This document shows, one piece after another, positions 4,603 through 63,307 of a stretch of DNA of 63,307 nt (positions are counted from its first letter, which is position 1; each line of letters begins with the position of its first letter). Both the position numbers and the translations under genes were made by a program. The notes under the pieces were generated by a model that was not told the DNA's origin, did no database searches, and saw nothing but the letters and a program-made list of their open reading frames with translations. The stretch is from an uncultured Candidatus Saccharibacteria bacterium (GTDB lineage Bacteria > Patescibacteriota > Minisyncoccia > Phycocordibacterales > DATDWN01). The stretch is taken from assembly GCA_964426735.1 (NCBI GenBank), contig CAYRRP010000004.1:25142-88448 (forward strand), read 5' to 3'.

Positions 4603-4621
4603 GTCTAGTGTATGAAAATTT

Positions 4622-4706
4622 GCCCAGGTGTCGTAATTGGTAGCCGAGCACCCTTGAGGTGGGTGTGCCGTAAGGTGTGGAGGTTCGAGTCCTCTCCTGG
4701 GCACCA
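4622..4706 (+). tRNA. tRNA-Leu (anticodon GAG), CCA encoded
   Basis: Acceptor GCCCAGG/CCTGGGC, anticodon loop TTGAGGT, long variable arm, T arm GGAGGTTCGAGTCCTCT, 3' ACCA. Confidence 0.9.
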
Positions 4707-4745
4707 TAAGAAAAAACCGCTTAATGCGGTTTTTTCTTATGGTGC
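4701..4745. terminator. Perfect 20-bp palindrome that includes the tRNA-Leu 3' end and CCA
   Basis: GCACCATAAGAAAAAACCGC (4701-4720) pairs with GCGGTTTTTTCTTATGGTGC (4726-4745). Confidence 0.75.
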
Positions 4746-4793
4746 ACAGAGCAAAGCAAAGCTTTGCGGAGAGGACTCGAACGACGACCCATC

Positions 4794-6071
4794 CTATTTC
4801 TTCGACGGCAATATAATCTCCGTCACGGTATACGCTGGGTCTGTGAGATATATTCCTATATTTTGCATATCTTCAAATGTCATTGTTTCCCGATCTTCGA
4901 TATTCTCAGTAAGTTTTTTTATAGTGTTGGTACGAACAACCTCAGATGTTACATTGTGTGCAATATCTTCACTATCGTGCTCACTTGCTCGAAGTTGTTC
5001 AAGACTTATATGGCGCATTTGTTCAAAACGATTTTTATATACATCTGTATGCGTGAGAAGTTTGATTTGTTCTTTGATTACATCGAGCACAATAACCTTG
5101 TGTTCTTCAGAGGTTTTGATATCAATAGAAAAATTAACATAATGAGCGCCGCGTCTGCTTGATACGTGGACTCCATAACAGAGTGGTTGTTCATCTCGGA
5201 GTTTCTCATGCAAGATATCCTGAAGTACTCGTCGGAACACATGCTCGTGGTCTCGAGGGTTTCCTCGGATATCTTTATGTAGGGAAATGTTTATCTCAAC
5301 CTGTTCTTTTACAAGACCGATTTCATCGGCTATTTTTACAATCTCATTGATGAGAGGAAGTGGAGTTTTTTCTGTAGTATTTTCTGTACGTAGGCCTTTT
5401 GGAAGTGTGTGTATTATTTCTTCCAAATCATGCAAAGATGAATCTTGAATATTTCCCACAAGAATAATATTCATGTTGACTGTGTGATAATGATTTTTGT
5501 GCCACAAACGCACATCCTCGGCAGTGATACCATTGATACTCTCGGGCCAACCAAGTGCACTTGAGACTCGTGAGAGTGAGTGACCAGGAAATACTTTTTG
5601 AGTAAATTCATGGATATAGGAAAGAAGTTTTTCATTTTGAAAATATCCCCACGCTTCCTGAGTGATCACTTTTCTTTCATGTTCAACATCCTCATCTCGA
5701 AGAAGAGGGGAGAAAATCTGCTCCGTCATTTTTTCAAGTACTGGTTTGAATTTTTCCGGAAGGCATTTGAGGTGGTAAGCAGTGTTGTAGTGCCCGGTGT
5801 ACGCATTCCATGTATCAAGTGTTTCATTTTTTCTCCACTCATTTACTTCTTTTCGGTCGGCAAAACTCGGTGAGCCGTCAAATATCATATGTTCGAGAAA
5901 ATGAGACAACCCTTCTTTTCCTCCTGGATCTTTAAACGCACCAGTATTAAATGAAATATATACATGAATACATGGCGCCCATGGGAGGTTCTTGTAATAC
6001 ACGGGCACATCGTTGATTTCTTTTTTAGAGAAATCATACGGGTCAAATGCAAGAGGTTTTGATTGTGTCAT
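4794..6071 (-). CDS. M16 (pitrilysin/insulinase) family zinc peptidase
   Basis: Inverted zinc motif HFLEHMIF (HxxEH) near the N-terminus. Size of about 425 aa fits the family. Confidence 0.85.
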   Translation of the reverse strand: MTQSKPLAFDPYDFSKKEINDVPVYYKNLPWAPCIHVYISFNTGAFKDPGGKEGLSHFLEHMIFDGSPSFADRKEVNEWRKNETLDTWNAYTGHYNTAYHLKCLPEKFKPVLEKMTEQIFSPLLRDEDVEHERKVITQEAWGYFQNEKLLSYIHEFTQKVFPGHSLSRVSSALGWPESINGITAEDVRLWHKNHYHTVNMNIILVGNIQDSSLHDLEEIIHTLPKGLRTENTTEKTPLPLINEIVKIADEIGLVKEQVEINISLHKDIRGNPRDHEHVFRRVLQDILHEKLRDEQPLCYGVHVSSRRGAHYVNFSIDIKTSEEHKVIVLDVIKEQIKLLTHTDVYKNRFEQMRHISLEQLRASEHDSEDIAHNVTSEVVRTNTIKKLTENIEDRETMTFEDMQNIGIYLTDPAYTVTEIILPSKK

Positions 6072-22955: not shown

Positions 22956-24641
22956 ATGACATTGCAGACTACAATAAAACAGTGGATTGCCTCGACATTA
23001 TCAATCGATGATGATGTTGTTTTGGAGTATCCAGGGGATCTCTCTCATGGAGACTTCGCGACCAATATTGCACTTGTGTATGCAAAACAATACGGCAAAA
23101 ATCCACGTGAACTCGCGGGGGAATTTGTTGAAAAGCTTAATGCGCATAAATTACCTGAAATTGCATCGATTGAAATGGCTGGTCCTGGATTTATAAACTT
23201 CAAACTCACACCAGAGGTTTTTGGAAATGTAGTGGAAAAAATTGTCGCAGCGGGTAAAACATTTGGAAATCATACAAGGCTTAGTGGGCAAAGAGTTGTG
23301 ATCGACTATACTCAACCAAACCCATTTAAAGAATTTCATATCGGACACTTAATGAATAACATTATCGGTGAATCAATATCGCGACTTTTTGAAGCACATG
23401 GTACTGAGGTGATTCGCAGTACGTATCATGGTGATGTTGGTCTGCATGTAGCAATGGCAATCTGGGGTTTGCAAAGTATGGAGGTGGGTACAGAAATGGA
23501 TGCACATATGCTTGGTAAAGCGTATGCAACAGGAGCGAGGTTGTTTAAAGAAAGTGAGGAGGTTAAAAAAGAAATTGTTGCACTTAATAAAGTGATTTAT
23601 GATCGCAGTGATGCTGATGTAAATATGCTGTATGATACTGGACGAAAAGTGTCGCTCGATTATTTTGAATCACTCTACAAACGTCTCGGCAGTAATTTTG
23701 ATTTTCATTTTTATGAAAGTGAAACAGCACCAATCGGTAAAGCACTTGTGGAAGAATATTTAAAAACAGATGTGTTTGAAGAAAGTGAAGGAGCGGTGAT
23801 ATATCGAGGAGAAAAACATGGGTTACATACTCGTGTATTTCTTACCTCTGGTGGTATACCAGTGTATGAAGCAAAGGAGCTTGGTCTTACAGCGTTAAAG
23901 CGGGAAGCAATTGGTAATTTTGATATGTCGGTGACTATCACTGCAAATGAACAAAATGCGTTTTTTACGGTGGTTGAAAAAGCTATTGAGGATATTTTCC
24001 CGGATTTATGTGGCAGACTGTTGCATCTTTCTCATGGCATGATGAAACTTCCTGGTGGAAAAATGTCTTCGCGTACCGGTGATGTGGTTACTGCAGAAGC
24101 AATGATTGAGAGTGTAAAAGAGGCGGCAAAGATGAAAATAAAACCAGGAGTGTTCTCGCAAGCACAACAAGATGATATTGCAGAAAAAGTGGCACTCGCT
24201 GCTTTACGATATACAATCCTCCGACAATCAATCGGCGGTGATATTATTTTTGATATCAATCAGGCACTCTCACTCGAAGGGGACTCAGGTCCATATCTTC
24301 AGTATGCATCAGTGCGTGCTTCTACACTTTTGAAAAAAGCAGAGGGTCTTGTCGAAGTGTCTTCTGTTTTGCCAGAGTCTTGGCAGACAACTCATATCGA
24401 AAAGCTTCTTCAGCGTTATCCACGAATCATTGACCGTGCAGGACGTGAATATGCTCCACATCAGCTCGTTACGTATCTTACAGAGCTTGCAGGGTCTTTC
24501 AATTCGTTCTACGGGTCTCATAAAATCATTGATGCTGATGATCCTACTTCAGAATATCGCCTCGCAATTACAAAAGCATTTTTCGATGTAATGACTTCAG
24601 GCCTTCATCTCCTGGGAATCGAAATCCCTCAAGAAATGTAA
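22956..24641 (+). CDS. argS: Arginine--tRNA ligase
   Basis: Class I HIGH motif (EFHIGHLMN), an N-terminal Arg-tRNA-synthetase additional domain and a C-terminal DALR-type anticodon-binding region. Confidence 0.9.
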   Translation: MTLQTTIKQWIASTLSIDDDVVLEYPGDLSHGDFATNIALVYAKQYGKNPRELAGEFVEKLNAHKLPEIASIEMAGPGFINFKLTPEVFGNVVEKIVAAGKTFGNHTRLSGQRVVIDYTQPNPFKEFHIGHLMNNIIGESISRLFEAHGTEVIRSTYHGDVGLHVAMAIWGLQSMEVGTEMDAHMLGKAYATGARLFKESEEVKKEIVALNKVIYDRSDADVNMLYDTGRKVSLDYFESLYKRLGSNFDFHFYESETAPIGKALVEEYLKTDVFEESEGAVIYRGEKHGLHTRVFLTSGGIPVYEAKELGLTALKREAIGNFDMSVTITANEQNAFFTVVEKAIEDIFPDLCGRLLHLSHGMMKLPGGKMSSRTGDVVTAEAMIESVKEAAKMKIKPGVFSQAQQDDIAEKVALAALRYTILRQSIGGDIIFDINQALSLEGDSGPYLQYASVRASTLLKKAEGLVEVSSVLPESWQTTHIEKLLQRYPRIIDRAGREYAPHQLVTYLTELAGSFNSFYGSHKIIDADDPTSEYRLAITKAFFDVMTSGLHLLGIEIPQEM

Positions 24642-24652
24642 ATACATTTGAA

Positions 24653-24692
24653 TACATAGGGGTACCCTATGTACATAGGGTACCCCTATGTA
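24653..24692. repeat. REP palindrome pair (back-to-back, opposite orientations)
   Basis: TACATAGGGGTACCCTATGTA (24653-24673) and TACATAGGGTACCCCTATGTA (24672-24692). The same motif flanks the RAYT gene at 49.6-50.5 kb. Confidence 0.85.
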
Positions 24693-24740
24693 TTTGCTTT
24701 CTTTATAAAAACTACTGAAAATGATAGTATTGGCGTATAT

Positions 24741-27700
24741 ATGGCAGAAGATAAAGATGTAAAGCTAAAAAGTGAGACCGCACAACGAGAAGAGAGTATT
24801 CTCGATTTTTGGCAAAAAGAAAAAATATTTGAAAAGACCCTCGCAAAGGAATCTCCAAAAGGGGAGTTTGTGTTCTATGAGGGTCCACCGACTGCAAATG
24901 CAAAGCCCGCACTGCATCATCTCGAAGCACGCGCATTTAAAGATGTAATACCGCGTTTTAAAACAATGCATGGTTTTCATGTGCGACGTAAAGGAGGATG
25001 GGATACTCATGGTCTTCCGGTGGAACTTCAGATAGAAAAAAAGCTCGGACTTCAATCTAAAAAAGATATTGAAAGCTATGGTATCGAAGCATTTAATAAA
25101 GAGTGTAAGGATAGTGTATTTGAATATATCGGAGAGTGGGAAAAATTTACTGATCGTATTGGATACTGGGTAGACAAAAAGAATGCGTATTTTACGTTCA
25201 ATCCAAGTTACATGGAGTCGGTGTGGAATATTGTCAAAACAGTTGATGAGAAAAAACTTTTGTACAAAGACTACAAGGTGGTGCCGTGGTGTCCTCGTTG
25301 TGGTACTGGTCTTTCGTCACACGAGCTCGCGCAAGGGTATGAAGATGTGAAGGATCTTTCGGTGTATGTGAAATTTCATTTAAAATCGGGACAGACATTT
25401 GGAGGAGATAGAATTACTAAAGATTCTGCTTATATTGTTGCTTGGACTACAACCCCGTGGACATTACCAGGGAATGTTGGTTTGGCTGTAGGGAAAGATA
25501 TTAAATATACAGCATTGAGAGTGGGTGGTATCTCAGAACTATTGATAGTTGCTAGTGAGAGAATTTTAGATTTGTTTAAAGACCAAAAGATTGAAATAGT
25601 TCATGAGGGTATTTTTGGTTCAGATCTTATTGGTCTTTCATACGAACCGCTATTCCCATATCTTGCGGACAAATTTACTGATAAAAATCCAGAAGCGTTT
25701 CAAAAAGCATACAAAGTATATGCAGGGGATTTTGTAACTACAGAAGATGGTACGGGTATTGTGCACACTGCAGTGATGTACGGACAAGAAGATTTTGATT
25801 TAGGTACAGAGGTTGGTTTGCCAAAATTCCATCTTGTAAATCCAGACGGACATTTTCTCGACGGTATGGATTTTCTTTCAGGGCGCTTTGTAAAAGAAAA
25901 AAGTCCTGAAGGAAAGCCAACCTTGGATGTGGATATCATCAACTATCTCAAGGAACACAATCTATTTTTTGCTCAAGAAAATTACAAACACTCATATCCA
26001 CATTGTTGGCGATGTAAAACTCCACTTATATATTATGCGCGAGATTCGTGGTACATCCGTATGTCGTCTCTCCGAAAAGAACTGATGGCAGAAAATGAAG
26101 GTGTTCGTTGGGAGCCAAAACATATCAAAGAGGGTCGCTTCGGTGAGTGGCTTCGTGAGATCAAAGATTGGGCTATTTCTCGTGAGCGATACTGGGGGAC
26201 TCCGCTTCCTGTATGGACTGATCCAGAAGGGAATTATCGAGTGGTAGGGAGTGTCAATGAACTCAGAAATCTCACTCAGAAATCTGGTAATACATACACT
26301 GTCATGCGTCATGGGCAGGCGGAAAATAATACTCGTGGTATTGCAAGTACAAAAAAAGACAATCCACACCATTTGACTGACCTCGGAAAAGAACAAGTGA
26401 GAGTCTCTATAGAAGATGTTCGCGGTAGAAATATAACAAAGATTATCGCTTCACCATTTGTTCGAACACGAGAGACTGCGGAAATGGTGGCAGAAGCACT
26501 TGGTATTGCAAAAGATGTAATCATATATGATGAACGACTTGGTGAACACAATGTTGGAATATTTGATGGACAATCGATAGAAGCCTATCGTCAGTTTTGT
26601 GTAGATAATGATTATTATACCGGCAGGCCAGAAGGTGGAGAGACGGTAGGTGAAATGAAAAACCGTGTCGGAGATTTTCTCTATGAAATCGAACAGAAAT
26701 ATCAAAATGAAAATATTTTAATTGTTACTCATGAAGATCCGGCATGGATGCTTTTTGCGGTTGCTGCAGGATGTAATCAAGAAGAGACACTCAAACTCGA
26801 TCCTTCAGGATGTGAATTTATAAAAAACGCTGAGGTGCGAGTACTTAATTTTATCCCACTGCCTCATAACAGAAACTTTGAGCTTGATTTGCATCGACCG
26901 CACATCGATAATGCAATGCTTTGTAATGAAAAAGGTCAGCCACTTACTCGTGTGAAAGAAGTGATGGATGTGTGGTTTGACTCAGGTGCTATGCCGTTTG
27001 CTCAGGTCAACTATCCATTTTTAGAAGAGGGGTTGTTATATCCTGCGGATTTTATTTCTGAAGCAATTGACCAGACTCGCGGATGGTTTTATACCCTCCA
27101 TGCGATTGGAGTACTAATGGGTAAAGGTAAAGCATATAAAAATGTGATCTGCCTTGGACATATTCTCGATGCTGAGGGGAAGAAGATGTCTAAATCGATT
27201 GGAAATATTGTTAATCCAAATGAGATGATGGATCTCTATGGTGTCGATGCACTTCGTTTGTGGATGTACAGTGTAAACCAACCAGGGGATTCGAAAAACT
27301 TTGATCCATCAACAGTAGATGAGATTGTTAAAAAAGTTTTCAATCCAACTCGAAATATTCTTGCTTTTTATGAGCTTTATGCTGATGAAGATACAAAAGC
27401 ATTTACAGGAAAATCAAATCATGTTCTTGACCAGTGGATAATGAGTCGTCTCAACGAAGTAATCAGAGAGGGTACTCAATCACTCGAAAACTATCAGGTA
27501 TTTGAGTCTGCCCGCTTAATTCGTGATTTTGTCAATGATTTCTCGACGTGGTATGTACGACGCTCACGAGACAGATTTAAATCCGAAAACAAAAAAGAAA
27601 AAAATGAAGCGCTTGCAACAACTCGCTTTGTACTACAAGAACTCGTAAAATACATGGCTCCGTTTACTCCATTTTTTGCTGAAGATGTATATCGTACGCT

Positions 27701-28277
27701 TCGTCTCGATATTGATCCTGAAAGTGTTCATCTTTCCATGTGGCCACAAGGAGGTGAAGTTAATGAAAAACTTATAGCTGATATGCAAAATGTTCGAGAG
27801 ACGGTGACTCGAGTGCTTGAACTTCGTTCAAAAGCAAATATAAAAGTAAGACAACCACTTGTGTCTTTGGTGGTGAAAGAAGAGTTTGGAGAAGAGCTTC
27901 GTGCAATTATTGCTGATGAGGTGAATGTAAAAGAAGTTGCCTCGGATGCAACTATGGCAGGAGAACTCGAGCTTGATACAACACTGACTCCGGACTTGAT
28001 TGAGGAAGGAATTGCGCGAGATGTAATTCGTGCTATTCAAGATGCTCGTAAAAAAGAAAATCTAACACCGAGTCAGACCGTTACACTTTCTATATCAGGA
28101 ATCGGAACAGAATTTTTGAATCGATGGGGTGAGATGATACAAAAACCTACAGGAGTGAAAAGTATTGAGGTTGTAGATGCACAAGGGGTTCATAAGCTCA
28201 CTCTCGATAACCTCTCGATTTCATTTTCTTTAGAACTTCAAAATCTGAGTGAAGTTCTAGGCGGACAAGAAAAATAA
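24741..28277 (+). CDS. ileS: Isoleucine--tRNA ligase carrying an inserted histidine-phosphatase domain
   Basis: PPTANAKPALHHL (HIGH region), the editing domain WTTTPWTLPGN, ISRERYWGTPLPVW, and KMSKS (KKMSKSIGN). The ATG at 24741 is preferred, since the upstream 24 codons are REP sequence. Confidence 0.9.
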   Translation: MAEDKDVKLKSETAQREESILDFWQKEKIFEKTLAKESPKGEFVFYEGPPTANAKPALHHLEARAFKDVIPRFKTMHGFHVRRKGGWDTHGLPVELQIEKKLGLQSKKDIESYGIEAFNKECKDSVFEYIGEWEKFTDRIGYWVDKKNAYFTFNPSYMESVWNIVKTVDEKKLLYKDYKVVPWCPRCGTGLSSHELAQGYEDVKDLSVYVKFHLKSGQTFGGDRITKDSAYIVAWTTTPWTLPGNVGLAVGKDIKYTALRVGGISELLIVASERILDLFKDQKIEIVHEGIFGSDLIGLSYEPLFPYLADKFTDKNPEAFQKAYKVYAGDFVTTEDGTGIVHTAVMYGQEDFDLGTEVGLPKFHLVNPDGHFLDGMDFLSGRFVKEKSPEGKPTLDVDIINYLKEHNLFFAQENYKHSYPHCWRCKTPLIYYARDSWYIRMSSLRKELMAENEGVRWEPKHIKEGRFGEWLREIKDWAISRERYWGTPLPVWTDPEGNYRVVGSVNELRNLTQKSGNTYTVMRHGQAENNTRGIASTKKDNPHHLTDLGKEQVRVSIEDVRGRNITKIIASPFVRTRETAEMVAEALGIAKDVIIYDERLGEHNVGIFDGQSIEAYRQFCVDNDYYTGRPEGGETVGEMKNRVGDFLYEIEQKYQNENILIVTHEDPAWMLFAVAAGCNQEETLKLDPSGCEFIKNAEVRVLNFIPLPHNRNFELDLHRPHIDNAMLCNEKGQPLTRVKEVMDVWFDSGAMPFAQVNYPFLEEGLLYPADFISEAIDQTRGWFYTLHAIGVLMGKGKAYKNVICLGHILDAEGKKMSKSIGNIVNPNEMMDLYGVDALRLWMYSVNQPGDSKNFDPSTVDEIVKKVFNPTRNILAFYELYADEDTKAFTGKSNHVLDQWIMSRLNEVIREGTQSLENYQVFESARLIRDFVNDFSTWYVRRSRDRFKSENKKEKNEALATTRFVLQELVKYMAPFTPFFAEDVYRTLRLDIDPESVHLSMWPQGGEVNEKLIADMQNVRETVTRVLELRSKANIKVRQPLVSLVVKEEFGEELRAIIADEVNVKEVASDATMAGELELDTTLTPDLIEEGIARDVIRAIQDARKKENLTPSQTVTLSISGIGTEFLNRWGEMIQKPTGVKSIEVVDAQGVHKLTLDNLSISFSLELQNLSEVLGGQEK
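26280..26870 (+). other. Histidine phosphatase (phosphoglycerate-mutase-like) domain inserted in IleS
   Basis: TVMRHGQAENN (RHG motif), LTDLGKEQ, ASPFVRTRETA, ERLGEHNVGIFDG, LIVTHEDP. It lies between ..VGSVNELRNL and ..LDLHRPHID of the IleS body. Confidence 0.75.
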
Positions 28278-28355: not shown

Positions 28356-28934
28356 ATGAGCTATCAGATTTATACAACCAAAGCATTAGTCATTAAGCGA
28401 ATACCTTATGACGCAAACGTATCATATCTTTTGTATACAAAAGATATGGGACTCATTAGTGCACTAGCGACTGGTGTGCGAAAAAGTGAATCAAAACTCC
28501 GCTATGCACTTCAAGAGTATTCACTTTGTGAAGTGTCGCTCGTAAAAGGCCGACATACGTGGCGTCTTACTTCTGCAGTACTTGAAACAAATCTTTATCT
28601 CTCTGCTTCTGCACTCGTTGCTCGTGAAGTGATTGCGCGTATTTGTACTCAGGTGGTGCGTCTAGTTGCGGGGCAGGAGAGAGATGAACAGCTATTTAAT
28701 ACACTCACACTTGGTTTAAAAGAGCTCACTTCAACATCTGCAGATATGATATCTCCACTTGAAATACTGATCATGCTTCGAATGCTTCATATACTTGGGT
28801 ACGTGTCTGATGTGGACACTTCTGTCTGTATGCCATATATCTCATATAGTGAAGACGTGATACATAGAGTAGCTCATTCAAAACAGGTGTTTGTTGCACA
28901 TATCAACAAAGGACTACGAGAAAGTCAGTTATAA
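28356..28934 (+). CDS. recO: DNA repair protein RecO (short form)
   Basis: The N-terminal OB-fold pattern (KALVIKRIPYDANVSYLLYTKDMGLISALATGVRK..SKLR) is typical of RecO. Confidence 0.6.
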   Translation: MSYQIYTTKALVIKRIPYDANVSYLLYTKDMGLISALATGVRKSESKLRYALQEYSLCEVSLVKGRHTWRLTSAVLETNLYLSASALVAREVIARICTQVVRLVAGQERDEQLFNTLTLGLKELTSTSADMISPLEILIMLRMLHILGYVSDVDTSVCMPYISYSEDVIHRVAHSKQVFVAHINKGLRESQL

Positions 28935-59637: not shown

Positions 59638-60182
59638 TAGCTTCATTCGGTATGAAAAAAACATTGAATCTAAAAAGCGGCGTTTAGGAAACATGCTTAA
59701 TTGAATGTTGCCCAAATTCCGCTCTAAGCGGATTTTTTGTTCCACAGATTGACTCGATATTTGACAACTAAATCCCGCCACTTACTACTGACCAATGATG
59801 GGTCTTTTCGGGTGAGTAGGCGGACCAAATATTTTGTTACCTAAGATCAATAGATGTTAGATAACAGAGTATGAATGTAAAAATATAATTGTGGTTTTTA
59901 AATTTCCTAATGGGAAATTTAAGAGCATATGGTGGATGCCTAGACTCTAAAAGGCGATGAAAGACGCGGCATGGTGGCGATACGTTTCGGGGAGGTACCT
60001 AGCAACCTTTGATCCGGAAATCTCTGAATGGGGGAACCCAACAGCTTTTGCTGTTACTCTGCAAATTATGCAGAGCGCACACCCAGGGAAGTAAAACATT
60101 CCAGTACCTGGAGGAAAAGAAAACAATGTTCGTAAGAACGATATTTCGTTAGTAGCGGCGAGCGAACACGAAAGAGCCCAAA

Positions 60183-60394
60183 CCGATGCATCACAGTGTG
60201 TAAAATATTTTTGTTTTGAATGGTCCGAGTGAGGAATACCTGTTATGAAAAGGGAGAAGGCCATCCCTGTGTAATGACAAAGCTCCTGCAGAGCTGGTGT
60301 TCCTCGCTCGGTCCACGGAAGTTCTTTCTGTGGCCGATTTTAAAATCGGTTTACCATTCAGTACGAAAATATTTTATATAGCGTGATGCATCGG
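60183..60394 (+). other. 23S insertion 1: helix-9 intervening sequence (~188 nt inside a 12-bp stem)
   Basis: CCGATGCATCAC (60183-60194) pairs with GTGATGCATCGG (60383-60394), between the conserved GCCCAAA and GGTTGTAAGG. The interior has nested stems. Confidence 0.8.
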
Positions 60395-60604
60395 GGTTGT
60401 AAGGCAACAACGTCAAATTTATTTGAGAGAAGTCAAAAAATAGTATGTTAATGGAATGCGCTGGAAAGCGCGACCCCAGAGGGTAATAGTCCCGTACATG
60501 AAAATCTACTATCTTCTTTGTTGTTGTTCTTGAGTACCTCGAGACATGAATAGCTCGGGGGAATCTGCCAGTACTAACTGGTAAGGCTAAATACTTTTAG
60601 AGAT

Positions 60605-60643
<39 letters not shown>

Positions 60644-60698
60644 GTCCGAGAGGACGGTGAAATAGACCTGAAACCATATGCTTACAAGGAGTCGGAGC

Positions 60699-60827
60699 GG
60701 GGGCATCACATGGAATGTGATGCAGTTTTTAGTCATTAGTCATAAGTCAACAGTAGATGCAAATGCATTTTACTGATGACTGTTAACTGTGAACTATTGA
60801 CTGCATCGCGCTTCGCGTGATGCTTCC
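60699..60827 (+). other. 23S insertion 2: helix-25 intervening sequence carrying repeat element rIE copy 1
   Basis: Inserted between CAAGGAGTCGGAGC and GTCACGGCGTGCC. The segment 60704-60822 is about 85% identical to 62413-62532. Confidence 0.8.
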
Positions 60828-61467
60828 GTCACGGCGTGCCTATTGAAGAATGAGCCAACGAGTTGATGGATGCAGCAAGGCTAAGCCCTTTACCGGGCGG
60901 AGTCGTAGGGAAACCGAGTGTGAATAGCGCGTTAAGTTGTATGCATCAGACCCGAAGCCAGAGCGAGCTTACCATGAGCAGGGTGAACTTTGTCGAAAGA
61001 TGAAGGGAGGCCCGAACAGTTTAGCCGTGCAATACTATCTGATGACTTGTGGTAAGAAGTGAAAAGCTAATCGAGCCTGGTAATAGCTGGTTCTCTCCGA
61101 AATAGCTTTTGGGCTAGCGTTAGATGATCCCTTCCGGGGTAGAGCACTGGAAGGACTCGACAGGGAGAAATCTCGCGAGTCCTATCAAACTCCGAATACG
61201 GAAGATTACAGTCTAGCAGTTAGACGGCGGGGGCTAAGCTCCGTACGTCAAAAGGGAAACAGCCCTGATCTCTATTTAAGGTCCCTAAATCTATGTTAAG
61301 TACACGTAAGGTGGTGGATTTTCTCAGACACTGAGGAGGTTGGCTTAGAAGCAGCCATCCTTTAAAGAAAGCGTAACAGCTCACTCAGTAAGAGAATCTG
61401 CGCCGCAAATAATCGGGGTTAAACATGGTACCGAAACTGAGGGTTTGTAGACTTCATCAAGAAAAAA

Positions 61468-61579
61468 TTCCAAAATTGGCGAATTTCATCTTTTTGATTT
61501 TTAAAATACTCGTCACCGTACGTCAGTACGGCTTCTCGTATTTTAAAAATCAAAAAGCGAACTTCATCCAATTTTGAAA
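61468..61579 (+). repeat. Dispersed ~115-nt hairpin repeat, copy G, inside the 23S H45 insertion
   Basis: TTCCAAAATTGG-CGAATTTCAT..TCGTCACCGTACGTCAGTACGGCTTCTC..CGAACTTCATCCAATTTTGAAA. Confidence 0.8.
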
Positions 61580-61602
61580 TTTTATAAAATGTTTTTTAAT
61601 GC

Positions 61603-61677
61603 GCATCGGTCGTCTAATGGTTAGGACATCGGACTCTTAATCCGAAAATTGGGGTTCGAGTCCCTGCTGATGCGCCA
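61603..61677 (+). tRNA. tRNA-Lys (anticodon CTT), CCA encoded, nested in the 23S insertion
   Basis: Acceptor GCATCGG/CTGATGC (one G-U pair), U8, 3-bp D stem GTC/GAC, anticodon stem TCGGA/TCCGA with loop CTCTTAA, T arm TGGGG-TTCGAGT-CCCTG, discriminator G, CCA. Confidence 0.8.
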
Positions 61678-61722
61678 CTCCAATTTTTGGAGTGAATGTT
61701 CTTTAATTTGTGTCCAAAATGT

Positions 61723-61799
61723 GGACGTGTAGCTCAGCCTGGTAGAGCGGTGCGCTGAAAACGCATATGTCGGGGGTTCGATTCCCTCCACGTCCACCA
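61723..61799 (+). tRNA. tRNA-Phe (anticodon GAA), CCA encoded, nested in the 23S insertion
   Basis: Acceptor GGACGTG/CACGTCC, D arm TAGCTCAGCCTGGTAGAGC, anticodon loop CTGAAAA, T arm GGGGG-TTCGATT-CCCTC, ACCA. Confidence 0.88.
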
Positions 61800-62410
61800 C
61801 TCTCTTTCAGAGAGTGGTACACAAATTTTTTCTTTCGATTTTTTAAAATCGAATTCTTGATGAAGTCTACAAGCGGTAGGAGAGTATTCGTATCTGCGCT
61901 GAAGCCAAAGGGGTGACCCATGGTGGAGCGATGCGAAGTAAGAATGTTGGCACAAGTAACCACAATGCAGGTGAAATCCCTGCACGCCGAAAGACTAAGG
62001 TTTCCTGTTCAATGTTAATCAGAGCAGGGTTAGTCGGGCCTAAGGAAATGGAGAGATCCGCATCCGATGGACATAGGGTTAATATTCCCTAACTTTTGTG
62101 TAATGCGATGGAAGGACGGAGTGCTGTATATAGGGCTCATTATTGGATTTGAGTCACTGCCGTGAGATTGTGTTCCAGGTAAATCCGGACACTCACTTAA
62201 ATGTGGAATTCGAGCGGTTGCGAAACCTTGAGATTCGTCAAGAGGGATCCTATAAAGCGCGCTTCCAAGAAAAGTTTCTAAGCTTAAGTACACAAGAACC
62301 GTACCGTAAACCGACACAGGTAGTCAGGTCGAGTAGACCAAGGCGAACGAGTGAGAGATCCCCAAGGAACTCGGCAAAAAAGCAGCCGTAACTTCGGAAT
62401 AAGGCTTGCC

Positions 62411-62535
62411 CCCATCACATGGAATGTGATGGTGGTCATAAGTAGACAGTCATAAGTCAACAGAAAATGCATATGCATTTTACTAATGACTATTGACTGT
62501 GAACTGTTGACTTCATCGCGCTTCGCGTGATGGGG
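62411..62535 (+). other. 23S insertion 4: helix-63 intervening sequence carrying repeat element rIE copy 2
   Basis: Inserted between CGGAATAAGGCTTG and CGCAGCTAAAG..GGCAACTGTTTATCAAAAACACAG. The closing stem is CCCCCATCAC / GTGATGGGGG. Confidence 0.8.
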
Positions 62536-62688
62536 GCCGCAGCTAAAGTATTTCTGGCAACTGTTTATCAAAAACACAGCTCCCTGCGAACTCGCAAGAG
62601 GATGTATAGGGGGTGACACCTGACCAATGCCAGAAGGTCAAATATGGGAGGTGATGTCGCAAGACTGAGCTTGACTGTATAAGCCCTG

Positions 62689-62723
<35 letters not shown>

Positions 62724-62967
62724 TGTGCGAACGAATCATATCGTGCGCACAAGGACTGGGACTGTTGTAGTTCTGTTGATACAATAAAATGTTCAATTTT
62801 ATTTATTGGCATTTTGATAAACTAACTAAACAATAATCATTACATTTCTAGCTACCTATCATGCCGTAATGCATGAATAGTCCAACGTGATTGACGAGAG
62901 ACCAACGTCACGGACCCGAAACTTGCAAAGTTGGGTTAAGAGAGAGTCCAACGGAGAGGAATCGTTG
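62724..62967 (+). other. 23S insertion 5: candidate ORF-less group I intron at about E. coli position 1931
   Basis: It interrupts GGTCCTAAGGT | AGCGAAATTCC. The upstream exon ends in T(U) and the insert ends in G. It contains an AAGAGAGAGTCC (J8/7-P7-like) segment and a duplicated AGTCCAACG. No ORF is present. Confidence 0.45.
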
Positions 62968-63307
62968 AGCGAAATTCCTTGTCGGGTAAGTTCCGACGCG
63001 CACGAATGGTGTAATGACTGGAAAACTGTCTCGGGGATTTGCTCGGTGAAAATACAATACCGGTGAAGATGCCGGTTACCTGCAGTTAGACGAAAAGACC
63101 CCAGGAGCTTTACTGCATCTTGATATTGAGAATATGACTTGCATGCGTAGCATAGTGGTGAGGATTTGAAGGGCACTTCCGGGTAGCCTGGATCCGTCAG
63201 TGAAATAGCCATCTTGTTTGTTATATTTTCTAACCTCGGCGGAAAAAACGACGAGAGACAGTGTCTGGTGGGCAGTTTTAGTGGGGCGCTATCCTCCTAA
63301 AAAGTAA

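Follow-up and report, generated by a model that had tools for sequence, protein, structure and literature searches.

Why would a bacterium keep a complete phosphatase domain inside the catalytic body of its isoleucyl-tRNA synthetase (IleRS)? The question is raised by the ileS gene in a 63,307-nucleotide stretch of DNA from an uncultured Candidatus Saccharibacteria bacterium (NCBI GenBank assembly GCA_964426735.1, contig CAYRRP010000004.1, positions 25,142 to 88,448 of the forward strand; hereafter the window), in whose product some 200 residues with the motifs of a histidine phosphatase are nested in frame. We find this nested architecture across a lineage of Patescibacteria and the same phosphatase, in sister lineages, as a separate gene immediately upstream of an insert-free ileS. 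As an explanation, we give roughly even credence to the phosphatase being a partner of IleRS, an autonomous module on the synthetase that likely acts on something the synthetase binds or is.

On the forward strand, positions 24669..28277 form one open reading frame (ORF) with no interruption. The initial annotation had described a continuous ileS frame of about 1178 codons, and neither a frameshift nor a stop codon divides it into two genes. Translation likely starts at MAEDKD (position 24741), which fits the orthologue consensus and gives a predicted protein of 1178 residues; the in-frame ATG upstream at 24669 is probably not the start codon. The parts of the gene are as follows.

24741..28277, + strand: ileS, a type-2 isoleucyl-tRNA synthetase with nested phosphatase (1178 aa plus stop; TIGR00392, MupA/MupB-type relatives, PDB 8c8w/8c8v)
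24741..26264, + strand: N-terminal part of IleRS, residues 1-508 (first Rossmann half, connective peptide 1 (CP1) editing domain and WAISRERYWG strand; tRNA-synt_1 at 20-514; aligns with 8c8w 2-474)
24909..24920, + strand: class I signature A-L-H-H, residues 57-60, in place of H-x-G-H (G/A-x-H-H in the aligned orthologues, n = 70)
26265..26291, + strand: N-terminal linker RNLTQKSGN, residues 509-517, ending at the invariant Asn517, which is invariant in free-standing homologues too
26292..26846, + strand: His_Phos_1 domain, residues 518-702 (Pfam PF00300, AlphaFold, Foldseek and conservation of catalytic residues)
26847..26888, + strand: C-terminal linker NFIPLPHNRNFELD, residues 703-716, conserved and limited to insert-bearing forms
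26874..28277, + strand: C-terminal part of IleRS, residue 712 to the end (zinc-knuckle remnant, DVWFDSG, DQTRGWF, KMSKS, anticodon-binding domain and the type-2 C-terminal domain DUF5915; aligns with 8c8w 483-847 and beyond)

The initial annotation had placed the insertion at 26280-26870 (residues 514-710), and all the motifs that it quoted are present in the order given. WAISRERYWG (residues 477-486) and VGSVNELRNL (502-511) are followed by RHGQAENN (523-530, nucleotides 26307-26330), LTDLGKEQ (545-552), SPFVRTRETA (571-580), ERLGEHNVGIFDG (598-610) and VTHEDP (662-667), after which LDLHRPHID finishes at residue 723 and DVWFDSG occupies 743-749. The type-2 IleRS structure 8c8w aligns to residues 5-508 and 712-1066 of the window protein, such that about 203 residues stand here for the roughly eight of 8c8w (475-482), in keeping with the remark in that annotation that the linker is short in ordinary IleRS. 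Alignment with six insert-free IleRS of orthologous loci gives the same clean boundaries, placing the insert at approximately residues 509-711.

A Pfam scan of the full protein finds His_Phos_1 (PF00300) at residues 521-688, inside tRNA-synt_1, with E=8.2e-30 and 104.4 bits against a cut-off of 21.7; the isolated insert segment matches the same family with E=3e-31 (109 bits). AlphaFold predicts a histidine phosphatase fold with high confidence when the domain is modelled alone (pLDDT 95.1, pTM 0.92), and in the full-length model (mean pLDDT 86.8, pTM 0.78) the insert lies mostly above 90. Foldseek returns only IleRS, valyl-tRNA synthetase (ValRS) and leucyl-tRNA synthetase (LeuRS) for the full-length model. 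For the domain, searched against the PDB, it returns PspA first (4ij5/4ij6, TM ~0.8), together with TIGAR, PhoE/YhfR, the riboflavin-pathway HFP, Rv2419c and CobC (TM 0.75-0.82). The top 14 structures are phosphatases, and cofactor-dependent phosphoglycerate mutases (dPGMs) appear from about rank 37 with a TM on target (TMt) of ~0.6, since these enzymes are larger.

That the domain is the cell's own dPGM, a glycolytic enzyme hidden inside IleRS, is very improbable. The short archaeal dPGM model NF038349 is indeed the best NCBIfam match of the insert, and the initial annotation had called the domain phosphoglycerate-mutase-like. However, the score of 81.9 bits falls far below the cut-off of 225, the models for CobC, RNase H/acid phosphatase and PspA score similarly, and the other dPGM models are missed as well (GpmB NF002901, 53.7 against 261 bits; NF002339, 30.3 against 316 bits). 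The structural ranking puts phosphatases first and dPGMs lower, with poorer target coverage, and the segment past the catalytic Glu and His (GEHNVG..., THEDPAW) varies between orthologues. The insert also lacks ERHYG and HGNSLRAL, which we take to be the substrate-binding motifs of dPGMs. On the cut-offs and the structural ranking, the dPGM assignment was rejected. The phosphatase models of NCBIfam are likewise missed (PspA, 51.9 against 350 bits; CobC, 71.2 against 162.9; SixA, 30.8 against 74.5; PRK13462, 33.4 against 226), and the free-standing members described below also stay under the equivalog cut-offs of characterised phosphatases. Because no equivalog cut-off is reached and the nearest structures are PspA, PhoE, TIGAR, CobC and Rv2419c, the term mutase-like holds for the fold and fails for the family; to judge from its sequence and predicted fold, the insert is a generic small phosphatase in a subfamily of its own.

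Histidine phosphatases hydrolyse phosphomonoesters via a phospho-histidine intermediate. In the insert, the catalytic set comprises R523/H524 (26307-26312), N530 (26328-26330), R575 (26463-26465), E602 (26544-26546) and H664 (26730-26732). Across 70 aligned orthologues, in which the insert measures 170-228 residues (median 204), N517, R523, H524, N530, T546, G549, S571, R575, E602 and H664 are invariant. The Arg/His/Arg/His set is kept in 105 of 105 near-complete copies from all architectures, every tandem copy included, with Glu as the acid in 72 and Asp in 33, which bears out the catalytic residues named by the initial annotation. Taken as a whole, the insert is the least conserved stretch of the catalytic body, with a mean top-residue frequency of 0.55 against 0.83-0.85 in the Rossmann flanks; as its catalytic residues are invariant nonetheless, the domain appears to be under selection for catalysis. 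We infer that it is an active phosphomonoesterase of the PhoE/PspA/CobC type, not a mutase, with His524 as the predicted nucleophile and Glu602 as the predicted general acid.

The junctions of the insert carry further information. By chain order alone, its site between the WAISRERYWGTPLPVW strand and the DVWFDSG helix would correspond to the CP3 connective peptide in the nomenclature of class Ia synthetases (PMC11685878). Both 8c8w and the insert-free IleRS of Patescibacteria have a CxxC...CxxC motif, a small zinc knuckle, at the homologous segment, the two halves of which lie in the window at 26208-26240 and 26910-26948 (residues 490-500 and 724-736). Among the 70 insert-bearing IleRS, 64 have none of the four cysteines left, two (the window protein included) keep one, and four keep two plus two. 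The outgroups possess the zinc knuckle but lack the insert, which makes the nested form derived. The four proteins with both the knuckle cysteines and the insert may be evolutionary intermediates. The C-terminal linker has the consensus F-x-P-L-P-H-N-x-x-Y-E-L-D, absent from insert-free IleRS, and is better conserved among the 70 orthologues than most of the phosphatase (F704 in 67, P708 in 70, H709 in 67, N710 in 66, E714 in 68 and D716 in 70), with a pLDDT of ~93 in the full-length model. This high conservation, together with the full-model pTM of 0.78, suggests that the phosphatase is docked in a fixed position and is not a floppy tether.

Fixed docking and the loss of knuckle cysteines in most insert-bearing forms would also suit a non-catalytic module, in which the fold replaces the zinc knuckle, binds a phosphorylated ligand (a metabolite, an alarmone or the 5' phosphate of tRNA) and tunes IleRS allosterically without turnover; tandem arrays of 2-4 copies, described below, are likewise more typical of binding modules. 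We nevertheless regard this as unlikely: the nucleophilic His and the general acid, which serves turnover and not binding, are kept in every one of the 105 copies, the free-standing members have the same catalytic set, and the four proteins with intact knuckle cysteines carry the insert all the same.

Could the fusion be artificial, a product of faulty sequencing or assembly that merged two genes, or else a recent mobile-element or intein insertion? We consider this to have a negligible chance. The 120 best homologues of the protein (56-77% identity), from metagenome-assembled genomes labelled Parcubacteria, Zambryskibacteria, Minisyncoccia or Patescibacteria, all combine PF00133 with PF00300 in frame, as do 80 of 80 loci from independent assemblies. 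With one genome per species of the GTDB, at least 523 genomes hold a relative of residues 470-760, and in the best 80 of these the insert is covered; they comprise Zambryski-, Nomura- and Taylorbacteria, Paceibacteria/Paceibacterota and one Berkelbacteria. The survey of related genomes that the initial annotation had called for thus shows the nested architecture to be lineage-wide and no artefact; proteins of this kind, already provided with precomputed Pfam labels, number in the thousands in sequence databases. The guanine-plus-cytosine (GC) content over the insert (0.38-0.47) is like that of its flanks, with no anomaly. No intein, Hint, homing-endonuclease or transposase domain is found in the window protein by Pfam, and the insert junctions show neither a bracketing target-site duplication nor strong terminal inverted repeats; an intein or mobile-element insertion was rejected on these grounds. 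The one feature in favour of such an origin is a direct repeat at the N-terminal junction. This exact 12-nucleotide repeat, ACTCAGAAATCT, occurs in two copies with 13-nucleotide spacing at window positions 26261-26285, where IleRS (...ELRNL) meets the insert (TQKSGN...); it has no partner at the C-terminal junction and may be due to chance.

The same phosphatase also exists outside IleRS. When 1.84 billion cluster representatives were searched with the insert, 7,770 matched at E<=1e-3, of which 869 reached E<=1e-10. Of the 150 top matches, 113 include part of an IleRS or ValRS host; the other 37 lack one, and about 15 of these look like complete proteins (~190-210 aa). Over their full length, these free-standing proteins can be aligned with the whole insert (31-39% identity). 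They keep the same catalytic set and share two edge motifs with the insert: the invariant Asn, six positions ahead of the Arg of RHG, and a strand at the C-terminus with the pattern 'GE-x-R-x-L'. A profile built from twelve of them finds 951 relatives; where a name is given, it is no more specific than 'histidine phosphatase family protein' or 'PhoE', and the sources are Parcubacteria/Pacebacteria.

We examined the genomic context of seven free-standing members on long contigs, which gave ten loci. At all ten (7 of 7 members), the phosphatase gene is flanked by argS on its upstream side and by an insert-free ileS of 942-966 aa on its downstream side, with recO after ileS where the locus extends far enough. 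The genes are closely spaced, and in two loci (L081, L088) a stop codon overlaps the start codon that follows. This neighbourhood recurs in the window, in the order argS, ileS with insert, recO, a DUF11/CLIPPER protein, a class II synthetase and an M16 peptidase, and its argS-ileS gap, which in related lineages is occupied by the free phosphatase, is empty (27-99 nucleotides). The two anchors are:

22956..24641, + strand: argS, upstream neighbour (Pfam Arg_tRNA_synt_N / tRNA-synt_1d / DALR_1)
28356..28934, + strand: recO-like gene, downstream neighbour and synteny anchor (Pfam RecO_N)

Across the 80 insert-bearing loci, where argS was detected in 62 and recO in 71, no separate copy of the phosphatase occurs within ~6 kb, and the 63-kb window contains no second copy. 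Thus, at the orthologous loci sampled, the nested and free-standing forms are mutually exclusive (80 of 80 against 10 of 10). The initial annotation had read the segment as a domain insertion rather than a neighbouring gene, which is right for this genome, whereas in sister lineages the same phosphatase is precisely the gene immediately upstream of ileS; nothing else observed about the domain is as informative. The IleRS beside the free copies are only 32-55% identical to the window IleRS over the aligned segment and carry GIHH, GVHH or canonical HYGH motifs, so the association spans divergent IleRS2 lineages. Three of these insert-free IleRS (L083:8581-11481, L086:8693-11587 and L087:5596-8487) have E-M-H-K-S for KMSKS and W-L-D-A-G for WFDSG.

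Nesting is not restricted to one site, nor to IleRS. One IleRS (P0247) has two tandem copies at the window's site, and further IleRS sites lie, in window numbering, at ~725-735, at ~755-769 between DxWFxSG and DQTRGWF, and at ~884-896 at the start of the anticodon-binding domain. Another (P0242; L093:4001-8260), 1,419 aa long, has its two phosphatase domains elsewhere, at two further sites. Its gene is complete and lies on a long-read contig of 28.6 kb, which shows the multi-site architecture to be real. The neighbours of P0242 encode DAHP synthase and SLH-domain proteins, and the architecture may reach beyond typical Paceibacteria. A search started from a ValRS representative brought up a large ValRS family in Gracilibacteria/Peregrinibacteria, in which 70 of 119 relatives carry one to three copies, several of them on megabase-scale contigs. 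Of these copies, 71 lie between WxISRQ and KMSKS and 8 before WxISRQ, and most first copies begin 26-30 residues past the WxISRQ tryptophan, in the loop homologous to the window's site. Paceibacteria ValRS are without the domain (e.g., a Nomurabacteria entry of 931 aa), such that, of the two paralogous enzymes, just one seems to bear it in each lineage. A ValRS with four copies (P0135) was set aside, as its 3.9-kb contig has ~2x coverage and the ORF stops inside the fourth copy; the conclusion on ValRS rests on the 70 others. A neighbour-joining tree of the domain copies, having neither outgroup nor support values, is used descriptively, and the number of insertion events is judged no further than the different sites and hosts allow. 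Two syntenic valS loci of Gracilibacteria/Peregrinibacteria-like genomes (UvrD, DUF192, valS), one with (L096:5001-8270) and one without (L094:5001-7652) a nested phosphatase, provide a clean natural pair for dating the ValRS insertion.

The host itself looks intact. The whole protein scores 891.6 bits against a cut-off of 621.4 for TIGR00392 (ileS), and the next-best NCBIfam matches are IleRS of the MupA/MupB type, which makes it a type-2 IleRS; by sequence and Foldseek, the closest PDB structures are 8c8w and 8c8v, the type-2 enzyme of Priestia megaterium. In Pfam order, tRNA-synt_1, split by His_Phos_1, is followed by Anticodon_1 (897-1040) and DUF5915 (1077-1165), and the CP1 editing domain is recognised by its match to 1wk8/1wny/1ue0 at residues 199-421. 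KMSKS occupies residues 815-819 (27183-27197), with K815, M816, S817 and K818 invariant and S819 kept in 66 of the 70 orthologues. The first position of the class I signature is Gly in 34, Ala in 33 and Val in 3 of them, the third is His in all 70 and the fourth is His in 67. In IleRS2, G/AXHH is catalytically competent and confers mupirocin hyper-resistance (Brkic et al., PMC10485003), and the enzyme of D. radiodurans, with a natural ALHH, has a mupirocin Ki of 6.6 mM (PMC10485003). With K-M-S-K invariant, a signature known as a functional variant, and the editing and anticodon-binding domains present, the host is probably still a functional synthetase; it is the sole ileS seen in the regions read, that is, the 63-kb window and the ~12-kb loci of relatives. 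From the signature in the 70 orthologues, the whole Paceibacteria clade is predicted to be intrinsically mupirocin hyper-resistant.

Given its position in the catalytic body, and with both hosts, IleRS and ValRS, being editing enzymes, the phosphatase might be thought an extra proofreading module, as the initial annotation had speculated beside a tRNA-end phosphatase and a nucleotide or alarmone phosphatase; it would then act on misactivated adenylate or mischarged tRNA. Such a role is unlikely, to the point of being hardly credible. The family cleaves phosphomonoesters, and neither aminoacyl-adenylate nor aminoacyl-tRNA offers a phosphomonoester bond; the CP1 editing domain is already present; and the free-standing form and differently placed copies speak against a place in the editing path.

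More serious is the possibility of a hitch-hiking housekeeping enzyme, to which we assign a real though minor chance. The domain would then be an ordinary small-molecule phosphatase (e.g., a PhoE-like enzyme of broad specificity, a phosphoserine phosphatase or one for nucleotide or sugar phosphates) that has no mechanistic link to aminoacylation, was merged from the argS-ileS operon into a loop of an essential, constitutively expressed gene in a very compact genome, and functions there just as the free enzyme did. Several findings fit this account or weigh against a partnership with IleRS, some of them both. The characterised close structural relatives from Foldseek all act on small metabolites, and the free form, which is named only PhoE or after its family, demonstrates that the enzyme need not be part of IleRS. 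The domain occurs at four or more positions and in one to four copies, a variability which argues against a strict geometric requirement. Other in-frame passengers are evidently accepted by these synthetases, as in the IleRS relative P0264 with its GNAT and REP-associated tyrosine transposase domains. At two insert-free valS loci, one of them syntenic with an insert-bearing locus, no phosphatase gene lies within 5 kb; the operon link is therefore shown for ileS only, and capture from next door was rejected as a general story for ValRS. Among the anti-phage defence models of PADLOC, none matches the insert, its free-standing form or the complete protein. The seven context samples, all from long contigs and 48-56% identical to the reference P0255, may over-represent one clade, and adjacency alone might have given the opportunity for fusion.

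However, a passenger would not be expected to nest independently in two paralogous synthetases of different lineages, and mostly in the homologous loop, nor would gene order be expected to be so tightly kept beside IleRS types that are 32-55% identical. The mutual exclusivity is perfect in our sample, and the linker is more conserved than the domain that it holds. Nesting recurrence, gene order, exclusivity and linker all go beyond what a neutral fusion would predict. The comparative evidence that ties the phosphatase to IleRS, and in another lineage to ValRS, is of three independent kinds (nesting, operon adjacency and mutual exclusivity); this pattern bears the signature of a functional partnership, in hundreds of species of an enormous uncultured bacterial radiation.

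For P0264, the three in-frame passengers deserve a separate description. Its REP-associated tyrosine transposase/IS200-like domain, located in the CP1 region, scores 81.3 bits for NF047646 (cut-off 80); the window's site is taken by a His_Phos domain, and a GNAT acetyltransferase domain follows DCWFESG.

Under the partnership reading, the association of phosphatase and IleRS would predate the fusion. In the window's lineage, the partner gene would have been relocated to a loop of ileS that tolerates insertion, and most descendants would then have lost the zinc-binding cysteines. The phosphatase would stand outside the chemistry of aminoacylation and editing, as an autonomous module held on the synthetase. 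The weakest step is the substrate, for which, as tethering recurs and mostly in the same loop of two paralogous enzymes, we favour something that the synthetase binds or is over a free metabolite. One candidate is the phosphorylated synthetase itself, e.g., at the Ser of the KMSKS loop (Ser817). Class I synthetases are inactivated in this way by HipA and HipT, which phosphorylate the serine in their KLSKR/KMSKS loop (PMC6581861), and Ser817, the equivalent of that serine, is invariant in the 70 orthologues. The other candidate is a tRNA whose 3' end has been phosphorylated by toxSAS enzymes or left so by nucleases; toxSAS enzymes block charging through pyrophosphorylation of the 3'-CCA end of particular tRNAs (PMC11559606; 10.1101/2021.04.30.441581). 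With either candidate, removal of the phosphate would restore charging. A bolder version, in which Patescibacteria need a dedicated phosphatase at their Ile- and Val-charging enzymes because phosphorylation of the KMSKS loop or the tRNA 3' end routinely blocks charging, and in which the domain is a repair or immunity module, is put forward here as a speculative and rather doubtful extension. If true, it would define a new class of accessory activity for aminoacyl-tRNA synthetases alongside editing and the first histidine phosphatase with a substrate in the translation machinery.

How does this arrangement compare with known systems? The IleRS2 of P. megaterium (8c8u/8c8v/8c8w) and D. radiodurans (natural ALHH) resemble the window protein over the whole chain (phmmer E=1.5e-224; Foldseek TM ~0.78 on target) and share with it the DUF5915 C-terminal domains, G/AXHH, KMSKS and the CP1 editing domain, but at the tip of their Cys4 zinc knuckle they have ~8 residues in the place of the ~200-residue phosphatase of the window protein, and insert-bearing forms have mostly lost the knuckle cysteines. 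PspA (4ij5), PhoE/YhfR (1h2e/1ebb), TIGAR (3dcy), HFP (9mmh), Rv2419c (4pza) and CobC (6e4b) are alike in fold within the TM range given above, in length (~190-210 aa) and in the RHG...R...E...H pattern. From these small branch-1 phosphatases the insert differs by its 20-25% identity, its own Patescibacteria subfamily with the edge motifs, and its genetic tie to ileS/valS. Similar in composition is the bifunctional RNase H/acid phosphatase of the Rv2228c type (PRK07238), in which a CobC-like phosphatase is fused to a nucleic-acid enzyme; PRK07238 is among the best NCBIfam matches of the insert (78.9 bits) and of the free form (89.5 bits), against a cut-off of 326. That fusion is, however, end to end and with another partner enzyme, whereas here the phosphatase is nested; to our knowledge, the physiological phosphatase substrate of the Rv2228c-type enzyme is likewise unsettled.

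Synthetase modules acting in cis or in trans have precedents in the INS editing domain of ProRS against YbaK/ProXp and in the editing domain of AlaRS against AlaXp. These are alike in being nested or separate, and differ in being aminoacyl-ester hydrolases with an evident aminoacyl-tRNA or aminoacyl-AMP substrate, unlike the phosphomonoesterase predicted here, for which the aminoacylation cycle offers no obvious substrate. Curators already recognise an IleRS with an extra enzymatic domain, an acetyltransferase, in NF040702 (ileS_w_GNAT); the window protein falls outside this family, as it scores 322.7 bits where 1999 are required and shows no GNAT domain by Pfam, and P0264, which has GNAT, also fails (218.4 bits). 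The PHROGs match is a family of unknown function.

Few enzymes have been studied as thoroughly as the aminoacyl-tRNA synthetases; their accessory domains are catalogued (editing, tRNA-binding, GST, WHEP and others), and the domain table of AARS Online lists no phosphatase among them. Full-text literature searches, together with papers that included a 2026 preprint on the domain evolution of IleRS, turned up no account of a phosphatase within or next to IleRS or ValRS, in agreement with the initial annotation, which knew of no synthetase with this architecture. The synthetase and the fold are each known; what is new is their apparent partnership, undescribed and evolutionarily recurrent. This points to a step, missing from textbooks, in which phosphate is removed in connection with tRNA charging, or at least to a striking packaging of enzymes in ultra-small genomes. 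There is also a practical side, in that the label given to the protein by annotation pipelines is no more than 'class I tRNA ligase family protein' and metabolic reconstructions may miscount the domain as a phosphoglycerate mutase.

Two observations concern other parts of the window. A tRNA-Leu(gag) at 4622-4706 lies within a mechanically called 176-aa ORF (4612-5142) on the same strand, which on that account is probably no gene. At the other end, a 23S rRNA match at 59909-63307 spreads model positions 1-2300 over 3399 nucleotides, and its segment 61000-62600 corresponds to model positions 762-1839, with ~520 extra nucleotides. Inside this 23S gene lie a long hairpin-like stretch (61456-61590), a tRNA-Lys(ctt) (61603-61677) and a tRNA-Phe(gaa) (61723-61799); the region 61456-61799 looks like an intervening sequence with two tRNA genes, which would yield a fragmented 23S rRNA.

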